A stretch of 20,385 bases of DNA. Source: Candidatus Hadarchaeota archaeon. Lineage in GTDB: Archaea > Hadarchaeota > Hadarchaeia > Hadarchaeales > Hadarchaeaceae. How positions within the stretch are numbered: position 1 is the stretch's first letter; each line of letters starts with the position of its first letter. Below the pieces are notes generated by a model, which made no database searches, had not been told where the DNA came from, and saw only the letters and a list, made by a program, of their open reading frames with translations. Where the stretch lies: positions 1 through 20,385 of the forward strand of contig JBFMBF010000020.1 in assembly GCA_040755315.1 (NCBI GenBank), read 5' to 3'. A program made the translations under genes and the position numbers. Shown in pieces: positions 2,914-15,150 of the stretch.

Positions 2914-2955
2914 GGGTGGGGGACCAGGAAATGCGAAGTAATGGGTCCCCCACCC
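2914..2955. repeat. perfect 12-bp GC-rich hairpin
   Basis: GGGTGGGGGACC (2914-2925) pairs with GGTCCCCCACCC (2944-2955). 18-nt loop. Lies between convergent genes. Confidence 0.85.
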
Positions 2956-3605
2956 TACCGCTCACGTCGCCTGTGCCTGTGGAGGAGAAGTCTCTGGAGG
3001 AACCTCCACAGAAGGCTCGGGAGAGGGAGGGTCCGCCCCAAAGCTGATGGCCCTCCCTTCCTTATTCCACTCAAAATTGAGTCCACGCTAGTATCACACT
3101 CAAGCTCAGTGAACGCGAGGCCTATCTCATCGCCGCGGTGAGCATCGGAACCGCCGACGCCTGGGATCCCGTGCTTTTCCGCGAACCTCCTCGCCAAGCT
3201 GTTTGCGGGGAAGATGGCCCTGCCGTTGAGAACCTCCATCGCGTCGAACTTGGCCTTGTAAATGAGGCTGGGGTTCCGCCCGATGATGAAAGGATGGGCG
3301 GCTATCGCGATGCCTCCCTGCTCCCTTATCCTCGCGACAGTCTCCGCGGGAGAGAGCCCCCTTGGCACCAGCTCACTGACGCCAAGAGCCACGATGTGGC
3401 CGTTTGAGCTAGAGATCTCGGCAGCCGGGATAACGATGAACCCCTTCCCAGAGAGCTTCCTGGCCTCCCTGTGACCGGCGATTGTGTTGTGGTCCGCGAT
3501 GGCAAAGCCGTCCAGACCTTTCGCCTTGGCGAACTTCACAGCCTCCTTTACGGTGCAGTAGCCGTCGGAGGAGTGAACCGTGTGGACGTGGAGGTCTAGC
3601 TTCAT
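2955..3605 (-). CDS. PHP-domain metallohydrolase
   Basis: DLHVHTVHSSDG, IADHN, AAHPF and GGSDAH metal motifs. Start reset to MKLDLH (ATG 3605). Confidence 0.92.
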   Translation of the reverse strand: MKLDLHVHTVHSSDGYCTVKEAVKFAKAKGLDGFAIADHNTIAGHREARKLSGKGFIVIPAAEISSSNGHIVALGVSELVPRGLSPAETVARIREQGGIAIAAHPFIIGRNPSLIYKAKFDAMEVLNGRAIFPANSLARRFAEKHGIPGVGGSDAHRGDEIGLAFTELECDTSVDSILSGIRKGGPSALGRTLPLPSLLWRFLQRLLLHRHRRRER

Positions 3606-3671
3606 AATATCCAAATTACCTGCGCCCAGACTGGTTTTTACCTTTCCCCGGCCGCTCAGCAAAACCTACGG

Positions 3672-4106
3672 TCAACCCTTCCAGCTCGTTATTTTTTCAC
3701 AGTCGTAACATTTGCCGTTGTGGATGCAGATGGTCCCACCGCATCTGGGGCAACTCCATTTTCCCTGCTCCTGCGACAGAAACCTTCCAACGCCATGATT
3801 TTTTATAAAAATCAGGTTTTCAACGAGGCTGACGTTGTACCTTGTTCTGTAGCGATTATCCACGCGTCCAAGCTCATAACAAGGCATGTCTTTGCACTCA
3901 AAACAGAATTTTACCTCGCCATCCCGAAGCTTGGCGCACCGCCGTTTGAGAAAAGCGCAGAGTTTGTTTCGCGGACGGCAGCCAGCGCAGTGGACTATCT
4001 TCCCCCGCTTTTTTGACAATTGCCTGGAGTACGCCAGATATCCGCTGCAAACGTTGCAGTTCATGCCACATGGGGCGACAAGTTCTGCTTTGAATTTCTG
4101 ATCCAC
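3672..4106 (-). CDS. DUF3795-family Cys-rich protein
   Basis: APCGMNCNVC...CAGCR...CFECKDMPC...CPRCGG...CYDC pattern. Confidence 0.85.
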   Translation of the reverse strand: MDQKFKAELVAPCGMNCNVCSGYLAYSRQLSKKRGKIVHCAGCRPRNKLCAFLKRRCAKLRDGEVKFCFECKDMPCYELGRVDNRYRTRYNVSLVENLIFIKNHGVGRFLSQEQGKWSCPRCGGTICIHNGKCYDCEKITSWKG

Positions 4107-4122
4107 AACATCACGTTGGCAG

Positions 4123-5958
4123 TCACATGACCTTGGAGCCTGACGCCAGCGGCCTGTCCAGTGTCAATATCGAGACTTTGTCCCCATCCACGGCTGCGAG
4201 CAACATCCCGTCCGACTTTATGCCCCTTATCTTCGCCGGCTCCAGGTTGACGACGACTACAATCTGCTTCCCAATCAAGTCCTGGGGCGAGTACTGGTCG
4301 GCCACTCCCGCGACAAGCGTGCGGGTTTCTTCGCCAATCTGCACATCCAGTTTCAGGAGCTTGTCGGAGCCCGACACTCGCTCGGCCGCACTGACCTTCC
4401 CGACCCTCATGTCCACTTTTTTGAAGTCTTCCATCGAAACCAACGCCTCCGACCTGCCTGAACTCTTCTCCTCCGCTTTTTTAAATATCGGCGATGGGGT
4501 CCCTATTTCGTGGCCCGGCCTGATGCCGAAGCTTTTCGCCTGCGACCATGATTCTACCTTCACTCCCAGTTGTCTGGCCAGATTTTCAGAAGTTTCGGGG
4601 AGGAACGGCGCGAGCGCCACGCAAAGCGCCTGAACCAGGTTCGCGCAGTTCAAAATGCAGCTCGCGGCCTTCTCCGGCTCCTTTTTAATCACGTCCCACG
4701 GCTTTTGGGACTGGAAATACTCGTTGCCCCGCTTCGCCAGCGAGATTATCTCATCAAGGGCCTGTGTGACCTTCAAATCCTCCAAAAGTCTTTCCGCTCT
4801 TTCCAGCCTCTCTCGCGATTCAGACTCAAGTTTTTCGTCTATCTCGCCTTCCGAGATTTTTCCGCCGTATCGGGTTTTGGTGAAAGTCAGAACCCTGTGA
4901 ACAAAATTCCCCAGAATGTCGGCGAGCTCGTCGTTCAGTCTAGTGCGTATGCCATCCTCTGAGAAGCTACCATCCTGGCCAAACGATATCTCACGAACCA
5001 AAAAGTACCTGAGCGCGTCAACAGGATACGTTTTTATTAGATGAAGGGGGTCAATCAACACGCCTCTGCTTTTACTTAATTTTTCCCCTTTGTATGTGAC
5101 AAAACCATGGATGAAAATCTTTTTTGGAAGCGAAAGGCCGAGGGAAAGTAGCAGAGAACGCCAAATGACGCAATGATGCCAGCTTATGTCTTTACCAATC
5201 AAATGTACATCTGCCGGCCAAAATTTATCGAACTTTTCAGCAGGATAATCTATCGTGGTCAGATAGTTGGCTAGCGCATCTACCCACACGTATAGGACAT
5301 GTTTTTTGTCTATTGGCAACCGGATTCCCCAGTCAAAATCCGTCCTTGAAACACAAAGGTCTCTCAAAGGTTCTTTCAGCCGGTTTAAAATTTCTTTCCG
5401 TCTGCTTTCTGGCTGGATAGAATCTGGGTTTTGTTCGATGAAATGCACGACTTTATCTCTATACTTGCTCATCCGAAAGAAATAACATTCTTGTGTTACC
5501 AGCTCAACTTTTTTGTTATGGACGGGACATTTTCCATCTGTCAACTCGTCATCAGAGTAGAATGTTTCGCATTCAGTACAGTATTGGCCCTCATAAAACC
5601 CCTTGTAAATGTCTCCCGCCTGATGAAGCGTCCCGAATACGGATTTGACGACTTTTACATGCCGCGCTTCTGTAGTTCTGATAAAATCGTCATAAGAAAT
5701 GTCCAGTTCATCCCAAAGTTCCTTGAACTTGTTTGACATTGAGTCAACAAATTCTTTTGGATTTTTTCCAGCTTTTTCAGCGCACCTTTGTATTTTTAGA
5801 CCATGCTCATCGGTGCCGGTGCTGAAATGCACCTCGAAACCTTGGAGCCTCTTAAATCTGGCGATGACATCTGCACAAATCTTCTCGTATGCATGACCAA
5901 GATGCGGAACCGTCGAGGGATAATCAATCGCGGTCGAAATGTAAAATGATTTTTTCAT
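4123..5958 (-). CDS. metG: methionine--tRNA ligase with C-terminal tRNA-binding/dimerisation domain
   Basis: HLGH, GTDEHG, YVWVDAL and KLSKS motifs. C-terminal Trbp111-like domain (VDMRVGKV...VVVNLEPAKIRG). ATG 5958 follows SD GGAGGATG. Confidence 0.97.
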   Translation of the reverse strand: MKKSFYISTAIDYPSTVPHLGHAYEKICADVIARFKRLQGFEVHFSTGTDEHGLKIQRCAEKAGKNPKEFVDSMSNKFKELWDELDISYDDFIRTTEARHVKVVKSVFGTLHQAGDIYKGFYEGQYCTECETFYSDDELTDGKCPVHNKKVELVTQECYFFRMSKYRDKVVHFIEQNPDSIQPESRRKEILNRLKEPLRDLCVSRTDFDWGIRLPIDKKHVLYVWVDALANYLTTIDYPAEKFDKFWPADVHLIGKDISWHHCVIWRSLLLSLGLSLPKKIFIHGFVTYKGEKLSKSRGVLIDPLHLIKTYPVDALRYFLVREISFGQDGSFSEDGIRTRLNDELADILGNFVHRVLTFTKTRYGGKISEGEIDEKLESESRERLERAERLLEDLKVTQALDEIISLAKRGNEYFQSQKPWDVIKKEPEKAASCILNCANLVQALCVALAPFLPETSENLARQLGVKVESWSQAKSFGIRPGHEIGTPSPIFKKAEEKSSGRSEALVSMEDFKKVDMRVGKVSAAERVSGSDKLLKLDVQIGEETRTLVAGVADQYSPQDLIGKQIVVVVNLEPAKIRGIKSDGMLLAAVDGDKVSILTLDRPLASGSKVM

Positions 5959-6020
5959 GCAATCATCCTCCGAAACGCTTGCCAAACGCATATTGGAGTG
6001 GCCGTGTGGAACTTCGCCAA
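5955..6020 (-). other. putative 21-aa upstream ORF coupled to metG
   Basis: GGTGATAGC-TTG start gives MAKFHTATPICVWQAFRRMIA. Its TGA overlaps the metG ATG (ATGA). Confidence 0.4.
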
Positions 6021-6121
6021 GCTATCACCACTCCACTTGTATAGGCTGAACAATTTAAACGGCGCGGATGGTCCTTGGTTGAGTTTTATAACAGCCTGAT
6101 TTCATTTATGTTGGTGATAAA

Positions 6122-7426
6122 TTGGCCGACATAATCATCAAGGGGGGGCACATCCTGACAATGGACCCCCACAGGCGATTGATCAAGGGCGGCGCGGTTG
6201 TAATATCAGACGGCAAGATTTTGTCAGTTGGGGAAGAGACAAAAGAAAAGGCGGACACCGTGATTGATGCAAGTGGGAAAGTTGTGCTGCCCGGCCTGAT
6301 CAACTGCCACACGCACCTTGCTATGACGCTGCTCAGAGGGGTAGCCGATGACATGGAGTTGATGCCGTGGCTGAAGACAACAATCTGGCCACTTGAGAAA
6401 CACCTCACTGCTGAAAGGGTGTACGCGGGGGCGTTGCTCGGTTGCCTAGAAATGATAAAGTCCGGTACAACATGCTTTGCTGACAACTATTTCTTTATGG
6501 ACGAGACCGCGAACGCTGTTGAAAAATCCGGAATTAGGGGGGACCTTTCCCACGGCATAATAGAACACGGCGACCCAAAAAAGAGGGAATCTGAACTCAG
6601 GATTGGCGAGCAGCTTGTGAAAGACTGGCACGGCAAGGCAGGTGGCCGGCTAACAACCAGATTTGGCCCGCACGCACCCTACACATGTTCTCCTGAATGT
6701 TTGACCAAGGTGAAAGAGCTGGCGAAAAAACACAAGGTCGGGATTCACATCCATGTGGCGGAGAGCCAGGACGAGACAAAACAAATAACCGAGAAATACG
6801 GCAAGCGCCCGGTGGAACACTTGGACTCCATTGGATTCCTTGGCCCTGAGATTCTTGCAGCCCATTGTGTTTGGCTTAATGAAAAGGAAATCAAGGTTCT
6901 GCACGCCCGCGGGGTGAAGCCAGTCCACAACCCCGTAAGCAACATGAAGATCGGCTGCGGCGTTTCTCCTGTCCCAGAGATGCTGAAGGCTGGGATACCG
7001 GTTGCTTTGGGGACGGACGGGGCGGCCTCAAACAACTCGCTTGACATGATTAACGAGATGAAGTTCGCCGCGCTCCTGAACAAGGTGCACAAGCTGGATC
7101 CGACCGTGATGTCTGCCTACTCGGTGCTGGAGATGGCAACAATTAATGGAGCGAAGGCTTTGCGGCTGGAAAAGGAAATCGGTTCAATCGAGGTTGGGAA
7201 GAAGGCGGACATCATAATCGTGGATTTACACAAACCACACCTGACGCCGGCACATAATGTCGTCTCGCATCTGGTCTACTCCGCTGTTGGAGAAGATGTT
7301 GACACAACTATCGTCGACGGAAAAATACTCATGAAAGGCCGAAAAGTGCTGACGCTGGAAGAGGAAAACGTCATTGAAAAAGCTCAAGAAGCCTCGGACT
7401 CAATGGTAAAGGAGGCCGAAAAATGA
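6122..7426 (+). CDS. mtaD: MTA/SAH (5'-deoxyadenosine) deaminase, amidohydrolase family
   Basis: [28 protein letters not shown] and [10 protein letters not shown] motifs. TTG start after GGTGAT. Directly upstream of ahcY. Confidence 0.9.
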
Positions 7427-14181: not shown

Positions 14182-15150
14182 TCAACGTCTTTTGTACTGC
14201 GGGGCAGGGAGGGGCGCGTCTATTTTCCTCAGCATCCCCTTCGCACCTACGTTCATGCTCTTCAGGACCTCCCTTGCCTTACTTTCTTTTGTGATCCTGA
14301 TGTGCTCAGTGGAAAACTTTAGCACGTCGGACAGGTGGCGCTCAGGCTTGAAGTTTCTGTCCCCCCAGTCAAAAATGGCACATATTTTTCCCGGCAGATA
14401 TCCTAGCTCATAGTCTCCATACGCCCTCGTGACTCTGAGCTTGCTTTCATCCGGCAAAATCGCCTCATTTTTCTTTCTGAACAGAAGATCGGTCCCGTTT
14501 CCAGCGAGGCCGAAAAGGCCCTCCGCGGCGAACAGGTGGATGCGGAAGCTCGGCCACCACTCCCTAAACCTCTCTTCCCAATCCAATAGTTTTGAACAGC
14601 CCTTCAAGGCGCCGGCAATCGTGAAAACAAACATGCCCTTCACGTCATAGTCCCTTTCTCTCAGCTCGCTTCGAGCCATGGCCATCGTTTGTCCAAGCGA
14701 AACCCCCGTGGCGATTGTGTCCCCCATGAACAGGAACCCGTTGTCGGGCAGGGCATCAAAGTTAGTGTAAAAGACATCCGCGCCGAACTCTCCTCCCGAA
14801 GTCCTGCGCCTTCTGACACCGACAAAACAGCGCGGAAGGTACCTGCCAAAAATTTGCTCAAAAGCTGCATCGAACTGGTAGCCAAGGCTCCCCCTCAAAA
14901 CAACTATTTCCCCGATTTGACTGGTCTTGATTTTATTCAATTGCGGGAGCAGGGCCCAAGCTGTGCGCAGGAACTCCTTGCTGCACTCAAGCGATAAATT
15001 TCTAAGAGGCATGCCGCAGACGAGCGGGTTGTACAGAATGCGGTGGGCAGAGGGCATGCAAAGAATATGGGTTGCCTTTGGAAGGGATTCATGCTTGACT
15101 CGGTACAGGCCAAAATCTCCGGCCCACTTCACCTTTTCAAGCTGTCTCAA
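14182..15150 (-). CDS. divergent type I phosphoribosyltransferase (UPRTase-like)
   Basis: IVVLRGSLG resembles UPRTase VPILRAGLG. LFMGDTIATGVSL resembles a PRPP-binding loop. Confidence 0.65.
   Translation of the reverse strand: MRQLEKVKWAGDFGLYRVKHESLPKATHILCMPSAHRILYNPLVCGMPLRNLSLECSKEFLRTAWALLPQLNKIKTSQIGEIVVLRGSLGYQFDAAFEQIFGRYLPRCFVGVRRRRTSGGEFGADVFYTNFDALPDNGFLFMGDTIATGVSLGQTMAMARSELRERDYDVKGMFVFTIAGALKGCSKLLDWEERFREWWPSFRIHLFAAEGLFGLAGNGTDLLFRKKNEAILPDESKLRVTRAYGDYELGYLPGKICAIFDWGDRNFKPERHLSDVLKFSTEHIRITKESKAREVLKSMNVGAKGMLRKIDAPLPAPQYKRR

Follow-up and report, generated by a model that had tools for sequence, protein, structure and literature searches.

Introduction

Mobile endonuclease ORFs in fungal mitochondria create hybrid genes, and the accessible text of PMC3630166 describes such hybrids for atp6 of Allomyces macrogynus and for atp6, atp9, cox2 and nad3 of Glomus. 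There, the mobile ORF supplies the 3′ end of the gene and both ends persist. The Seg and Mob proteins of T4-like phages are free-standing homing endonucleases that carry out "intronless homing" (PMC2988022, in the portion available). No intron or intein is involved, the cut site may be far from the endonuclease gene, and long co-conversion tracts replace the neighbouring allele. The T4 enzymes are of the GIY-YIG or HNH class and act between co-infecting phages.

Xenologous replacement has its textbook example in the genes for aminoacyl-tRNA synthetases (aaRS) and is usually ascribed there to inhibitor resistance or drift. The parts of the archaeal reports available to us describe DPANN-to-host transfer of ValRS and TyrRS in Ignicoccus (PMC2614490), LeuRS forms in Halobacteriales, with mention of within-gene LeuRS breakpoints (PMC3436685), and DPANN-host transfer in general (PMC1175970, PMC7414124). 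Among methionyl-tRNA synthetases, MetRS1 family C has one knuckle and one zinc and MetRS2 has two knuckles, according to the accessible sections of PMC8165550.

The gene described here is metG of a Candidatus Hadarchaeota archaeon. It lies in a stretch of 20,385 nucleotides (contig JBFMBF010000020.1), the whole of which was analysed and is called the window below. The system to which it belongs resembles the fungal mitochondrial ORFs in that an endonuclease gene inserts, a foreign gene end is supplied, the displaced native end is left as a remnant and a working hybrid results, here known from sequence. The duplicated gene end of the Allomyces atp6 kind is found at metG as a native remnant plus a foreign copy, at the 5′ end. 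It differs from the fungal case in that the Hadarchaeota gene receives a 5′ end and loses about 1 kb, the whole catalytic module, on an archaeal chromosome and from donors of another phylum, the endonuclease usually being lost later. It shares with T4 homing the long replaced tract and probably the independence from introns and inteins and the distance of the cut site, but the metG element encodes an HTH-LAGLIDADG protein and sits beside an essential single-copy cellular gene. As in the archaeal aaRS replacements, divergent alleles are swapped among archaea with DPANN donors; those cases, as far as the accessible texts (PMC2614490, PMC3436685) go, are whole-gene displacements with no driver element, whereas in Hadarchaeota half a gene is replaced, in place and repeatedly, with an endonuclease and scars. 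Searches of the open-access literature gave no description of an endonuclease element at metG or of Hadarchaeota MetRS chimeras.

Results

The two halves of metG differ in composition

The window metG (4123..5958, minus strand), recognised as an ORF and by NCBIfam and Pfam profiles, encodes a chimeric MetRS of 611 aa and is the single copy found in an assembly of 1.21 Mb (50 contigs, 86.6% complete). The best matches that bear names assign the host to Hadarchaeota. The catalytic half, codons 1-336 (4951..5958, minus), comprises the Rossmann fold, a one-knuckle CP domain and the KMSKS domain. It carries the HIGH motif as PHLGH (residues 18-22; 5893..5907, minus), a single zinc knuckle CTEC...CPVH (C127-x2-C130...C144-x2-H147; 5518..5580, minus) and the KMSKS motif as KLSKS (residues 293-297; 5068..5082, minus). 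The C-half (4123..4917, minus) consists, by Pfam, of the anticodon-binding domain PF19303 and the C-terminal tRNA-binding/dimerisation domain PF01588 (residues 517-608), and contains the motifs LGNFVHR at 349, GNEYF at 411 and KPW at 419. A first-pass annotation had proposed that a bacterial-type catalytic half is joined to an archaeal-type C-terminal half at about residue 335/336.

GC content is 0.424 over 4954-5958 (N-half) versus 0.552 over 4123-4953 (C-half). The 60-nt rows counted by hand for the first-pass annotation proved exact, at 0.33-0.43 in the N-half (rows 5041, 5281, 5461 and 5701) and 0.47-0.60 in the C-half (rows 4261, 4561, 4681 and 4801). GC3 is 0.425 in codons 1-336 versus 0.69 in codons 348-611, a step that none of 1000 permutations matched, and the value for the N-half falls within the lowest 2.3% of the genome's 529 long ORFs.

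The junction was located with informative sites scored against six genus-mate type-B and 11 type-A proteins (the types are defined below). Up to codon 336, 109 of 111 such sites are A-like, and from codon 348 onward 46 of 51 are B-like, that is, like the type-B genes of genus mates. The crossover placed by these sites at codons 336-348 (4915..4953, minus) agrees with the earlier placement, and it lies approximately at the boundary between the KMSKS and anticodon domains, which we inferred by mapping residue 385 of type-2 MetRS, taken from the accessible part of PMC8165550, through alignments. The best GC3 change-point, codon 392, overshoots and is ruled out as the junction by the informative sites. 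A donor-derived middle segment (codons 336-391) is likewise ruled out, its best matches being genus-mate type-B proteins. Codons 348-391 (4786-4914, minus) are native by protein sequence, yet their GC3 is 0.48, well under that of the remaining C-half.

Crossovers in other lineages map to codons 315-324 (genome G016), 336-349 (G047 and G056) and 336-361 (G052), with three more less well bounded. In comparisons between genera, A and B alleles have a DNA identity of 0.68-0.71 over codons 316-365, versus 0.42-0.61 in the part that ends at codon 320; the rise after codon 316 is partly circular as evidence. Between G052 and G021, DNA identity is 95% over codons 392-611 versus 53% over codons 1-325, and the C-halves of this pair are 94% identical.

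The two halves have separate ancestries

With NCBIfam profiles, residues 1-335 scored 524 bits with PRK12267 versus 251 bits with PRK00133, and residues 336-611 scored 244 bits with PRK00133 versus 209 bits with PRK12267. Structure matches favoured MetRS1 structures for the N-half, and the best match of the C-half was 1rqg, which we take to be the Pyrococcus enzyme. The C-half is native to the genus.

Trees of origin were built from 39 named DPANN and bacterial MetRS1 sequences, 22 MetRS2 and 18 Hadarchaeota rows; all trees in this work, including that of EF-2, are quick trees with SH-aLRT support only. In the N-half tree, the type-A half is nested among Aenigmatarchaeota, Nanoarchaeota and other DPANN (support 95 and 97). 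With the knuckle columns removed, it grouped with MetRS1, with a support of 100 against 26 two-knuckle rows. Its closest named relatives outside Hadarchaeota are DPANN archaea (Aenigmatarchaeota and Nanoarchaeota; 60-66% identity), so that the term bacterial-type holds as a label for the MetRS1 family and fails as a statement of origin. The type-A clade of Hadarchaeota includes none of the named DPANN sequences; the direct donor is outside the sampled genomes.

The deepest split, with a support of 99, puts the anticodon domain with MetRS2 and apart from 31 bacterial and DPANN MetRS1 rows, and within Hadarchaeota the C-half of the window is sister to that of genome G002, matching the EF-2 tree. 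Separate phylogenies of the halves disagree, and AU tests rejected the N-half grouping on C-half data (p 5e-5, 1e-5 and 4e-5). With the profiles and informative sites, these trees bear out the claim of a chimera. A topology that keeps all one-knuckle rows together was compatible with the anticodon-domain data (p 0.53) and was weakly rejected by the full C-half (p 0.034). Among the best profile matches of the C-half (n=148), 51 of the 67 that could be classified were of the two-knuckle type; the other 81 were unclassifiable. Because the one-knuckle grouping is not or weakly rejected, we regard descent of the C-half from inside MetRS2 as likely only.

The window MetRS resembles MetRS1 family C (as characterised in the accessible sections of PMC8165550) in the profile of its catalytic half and in its single knuckle, which has all four zinc ligands; comparison with two-knuckle relatives revealed no second knuckle, which separates it from MetRS2. 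Unlike MetRS1, its anticodon domain does not group with the same MetRS1 but lies across the 99-support split (AU p 1e-5). The enzyme is a plain member of neither MetRS1 nor MetRS2.

Eight of the 39 MetRS1 rows, Aenigmatarchaeota-like sequences of type A (L049, L050, L053, L054, L059, L062, L063 and L076), also carry anticodon domains of the MetRS2 side and thus form a second set of probable chimeras. At one locus, L100, an endonuclease tail is kept before a gene similar to these eight.

Catalytic halves were replaced in place within Hadarchaeota

Of 66 genomes searched, 58 gave a metG match at E 1e-40; with one C-half fragment, 59 were typed. They comprise 32 of type B (one knuckle; GLDENS, AKDI), 18 of type A, the type of the window (one knuckle; TAIDYP, GKDI[SL]WHH), three of type C, five with two knuckles and one with a C-half only. 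The four catalytic-half types occupy one syntenic locus, mostly before the same PHP gene, which is found downstream of metG of all four types, and genes of all four types share the same amidohydrolase as upstream neighbour. In the window, by Pfam and synteny, this conserved and divergent upstream neighbour (presumably MtaD-like) is at 6122..7426 (plus), and the downstream neighbours, a DUF3795 gene and the PHP gene, are at 2955..4106 (minus). This genus, with three genomes, is the only one in which the DUF3795 gene (3672-4106, minus) stands between metG and PHP.

Type A occupies two families (eight genomes; the "old" type A) and occurs sporadically in ten genomes of seven genera in two other families, mostly with type-B congeners. 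The EF-2 tree (55 genomes) contains five sister pairs of unlike type, including the window genome (G000, type A) and G002 (type B), which pair with a support of 100. Type A requires one change on the N-half tree, eight on the C-half tree and ten on the EF-2 tree, and a C-half tree of 162 rows requires 29 changes of type. G002 and the window share 50% identity over residues 1-335 versus 79-87% over the C-half, and both flanks of the window metG are collinear with G002 at 80-85% DNA identity. The first-pass annotation had held that the catalytic half was replaced in place, and the trees of the two halves, the AU tests, the synteny and the sister genomes support this. That account is corrected in one respect: the displaced half had one knuckle (type B) and was not the archaeal two-knuckle form.

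GC3 of the C-half exceeds that of the N-half by 0.08 to 0.34 in all ten sporadic type-A genes, among which kin are not independent; the same difference is −0.16 to +0.05 in 29 type-B genes and −0.05 to +0.06 in eight old type-A genes. Type-A halves are 74-83% identical in amino acids to one another, yet they differ from the window gene at 42-69% of four-fold sites. With its intact motifs and as the sole metG found, the window gene is probably a working hybrid.

One genus (G027, G033, G036, G038, G063, G064 and G065) holds B, C and distinct two-knuckle halves on a single C-half clade.

A scar of the displaced gene lies upstream of metG

The feature extends beyond 4123..5958 to a stub upstream (5955-6034). 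Alignment with G001 and G002 identified, at 5988..6020 (minus), a decayed copy of the first 11 codons of a type-B metG with a TTG start and four amino-acid changes at otherwise conserved positions. With a profile of 32 type-B starts, this scar ranked first among 2,416,978 genome positions (30.9 versus 14.7 bits). It still ranked first when scored from position −9 on, and its last 24 bases alone, the coding part from the first Phe, ranked third in the genome. A general protein profile did not detect the decayed stub in the window. Further upstream, a TATA-like box (6059-6054) and a ribosome-binding site (6034-6025) of the old gene (6025..6059, minus) align with G001 and G002 and are native; these functional names follow the usual layout of archaeal promoters. 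A sigma-70 promoter scan of the window, with a model ill-suited to archaea, gave nothing useful.

The stub reads in frame through ten further codons to a stop at the new ATG. The resulting 21-codon leader ORF (5955..6020, minus) combines stub and spacer, and its stop overlaps the new start as ATGA, an arrangement in which translational coupling is possible. In the 29-base spacer (5959..5987, minus), which came with the new half, GGAGG at 5971-5967 forms a second ribosome-binding site; the spacer may hold the last bases of a lost endonuclease gene. Its likeness to endonuclease 3′ ends (the best of seven references) was not significant, being equalled by 10 of 297 background starts, and we do not count it as a remnant.

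The type-B scar upstream and the positive GC3 difference of the C-half over the N-half identify B as the resident and A as the incomer. These data indicate that the locus earlier held a type-B one-knuckle metG into which an A-type half came.

Some relatives carry an endonuclease gene between stub and new half

Genome G052 has a type-B stub of 34 codons and, after it, a 336-aa ORF, the stop of which overlaps the start of a type-A metG. In the product of this ORF, Pfam recognised HTH repeats and LAGLIDADG motifs, two of each, at scores above the cut-off. Its predicted fold (pLDDT 92.9) had PI-PfuI, I-DmoI and I-OnuI as best Foldseek matches; a sequence search of the PDB gave no match. The motif acids D133 and E224 are invariant in 66 endonuclease sequences. 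A metagenome locus, L224, has the same build, with a 24-codon type-B stub, the endonuclease and a type-A gene that is 84% like the start of the window's. In both, the endonuclease gene has its own reading frame and its own TATA box, and Pfam found no splicing domain in five endonuclease proteins. Four loci (L229, L233, L251 and L254) have in-frame fusions of the endonuclease to the MetRS N-terminus, in ORFs of 756-811 aa.

The 5′ end is assembled in nine of the sporadic type-A genes (that of G016 is missing), and five of these nine have endonuclease traces upstream, detected by profile in G052, G026 and G006 and by tblastn in G047 and G051. The gene is whole in G052, as in L224, and fragmentary in G026, G006, G047 and G051. 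In two of the nine (G007 and G056), the start is clean and lacks both a stub and a remnant. A stub in G043 is weak (E 2e-4) and was not recovered by the profile search. No traces were found upstream of 31 type-B and eight old type-A genes, a few of which have less than 800 bases upstream. The window and its genome contain no endonuclease gene or provable remnant; the window is probably a product of the cassette and is not the cassette itself. The empty alleles coexist with the occupied ones, as type-B sisters without the element, and the tract ends are sharp.

In 55 of 80 metagenome loci (duplicates included), the next gene after a member of the endonuclease family is metG, as it is in 53 of the 69 with 200 bases downstream; among the 39 best-ranked loci, this was the case in all 37 with downstream sequence. 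Besides G052's own record, 3 of 80 named loci have it before metG, with a remnant in a fourth. In 201 genomes of one Aenigmatarchaeota class, the best 5 of 25 matches precede metG, and in this class the endonuclease also precedes type-B-like and two-knuckle-like metG. Viral contigs gave one weak, partial match to the N-half and none to the endonuclease.

Stubs of metG were present upstream of the endonuclease at 11 of 42 loci, compared with 0 of 42 on the reverse strand and 0 of 21 at other targets. The remaining 31 loci have no stub, and at some (L231, L267 and L275) stub and new gene look alike in type. Most stubs end at codons 12-17; those beside the intact endonucleases of G052 and L224 end at about codons 34 and 24. 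Across 40 loci, endonuclease distances correlate with those of the N-halves (rho 0.34) barely better than with those of the C-halves (rho 0.29), which argues that endonuclease and N-half are no fixed travelling unit over long times. GC3 in 39 endonuclease-linked genes is higher in the C-half in 27 and lower in 10, which is suggestive only. Type B shares 62-65% identity with its nearest endonuclease-linked relatives, so B may have arrived likewise.

More distant members of the endonuclease family stand directly before other conserved genes (L212-L223, L268, L273, L285, L287, L289, L293, L297, L300, L320, L323 and L328), with no convincing stubs at these loci. By translation, we take these genes to be iscU/nifU, lepA, miaB, gatB/gatE, a LeuRS gene, a radical SAM gene and a hydrogenase subunit gene. 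In some DPANN loci, a small ORF, presumably ribbon-helix-helix-like, immediately precedes the endonuclease (L085:1791-1931; also L270, L279 and L288). In L068, a second ORF that is LAGLIDADG-like by eye lies about 1870-2540 bases upstream of metG on the opposite strand.

Discussion

Codons 1-336 of the window metG evidently stem from a DPANN-related type-A allele, and the remainder is native. In relatives, type-A halves arrive downstream of an HTH-HTH-LAGLIDADG gene, which was inserted behind the stub of the former start and survives whole, in fragments or not at all. The probable explanation, which we favour, is homing with co-conversion of the 5′ half of metG, followed by deletion of the endonuclease gene. 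The endonuclease would cleave the 5′ half of an endonuclease-free metG, and repair would copy the cassette into the resident locus. On the right side, strand exchange would resolve at the first stretch in which donor and resident are similar, codons ~315-360, so that the whole catalytic half would be co-converted. On the left side, the join might be illegitimate between lineages, or the stub might serve as homology among close relatives. With its target replaced, the endonuclease gene would then be deleted, and the window would keep the stub and the 29-base spacer. The ATGA overlap may let the old start feed the new one. For the window, the attribution to homing is drawn from its stub and from its relatives, since its genome has neither the endonuclease gene nor a provable remnant. 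The stages of replacement can be aligned within one phylum, from the empty allele through stub, endonuclease and new half, then fragments, then a bare scar, to a clean start, and this gradation points to a selfish driver.

Such a swap requires no host benefit, and selection by an inhibitor, which the first-pass annotation had suggested, is unneeded; we found no evidence for it, and the endonuclease cassette is the most likely driver. One could nevertheless envision that the type-A half benefits its host, perhaps by protection from a natural inhibitor of MetRS, and was spread by ordinary recombination with the endonuclease as a hitch-hiker. The C-half tree has at least eight gains or losses of type A, nearly all from B to A, and two clean replacements show no endonuclease trace. 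A and B differ at motifs that line the pocket (GTDEHG versus GLDENS, GKDI versus AKDI), and aaRS alleles can differ in inhibitor sensitivity, a suggested driver of replacement in the accessible text of PMC3436685. However, 32 of the 59 genomes, often those of sister species, still have type B, plain allele replacement does not predict stubs, and the endonuclease precedes many types of metG, as would be expected for a parasite of the locus. We think that host selection is unlikely for these reasons. The position of the junction had also been explained by the keeping of native tRNA recognition. The C-half is indeed native, but similarity between donor and resident accounts for the position equally well.

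Taken alone, the window, with its stub, foreign spacer, single crossover and absent endonuclease, would also fit neutral, homology-facilitated illegitimate recombination, in which DNA of a symbiont or relative was integrated by a homologous end at codons 336-348 and an illegitimate end after codon 11, with no cutting in this genome. The left junctions do differ among lineages, but recurrence at one gene in seven genera, and the presence of the same endonuclease family at five of nine such genes, would be left unexplained, and we consider neutral integration quite improbable. That two co-occurring genomes were joined in assembly is a concern with 50 contigs. Against it, the reading frame is intact across the junction, both flanks follow G002, the stub bears substitutions of its own, and the same build recurs in nine other genomes and many database proteins with crossovers at 315-385; an artefact of this kind is hardly credible.

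Homing with co-conversion may be part of a wider process, which we put forward tentatively and hold to be somewhat doubtful in its full extent: a natural gene drive that targets an essential gene of translation. A single endonuclease family would be a parasite of the metG 5′ end in DPANN archaea, in CPR bacteria and in Hadarchaeota, where it would have replaced the catalytic halves in waves (ancestral two-knuckle, B, then A, with C in one genus) from a low-GC DPANN reservoir, possibly symbionts, each new half being resistant to its carrier enzyme. If this is true, then the patchy pattern of MetRS1 and MetRS2 would be the work of a selfish element and not of antibiotics, and sister families may act at other core genes. 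The MetRS1 and MetRS2-side modules are exchangeable in nature at the boundary between the KMSKS and anticodon domains, which advises caution with whole-gene MetRS trees. The metG swap may also mark contacts between DPANN and their Hadarchaeota hosts.

Some other features of the window were noted. A DDE transposase is divided between two overlapping frames (1263-2236, minus; PF13737 and PF01609). Adjoining it, a ParE-like toxin gene, under the Pfam cut-off, and a DUF7557 partner (645-1188, minus) form a probable toxin-antitoxin pair. A 322-aa ORF (14182-15150, minus) that precedes valS has no Pfam match and has a counterpart in G001 with 63% identity.
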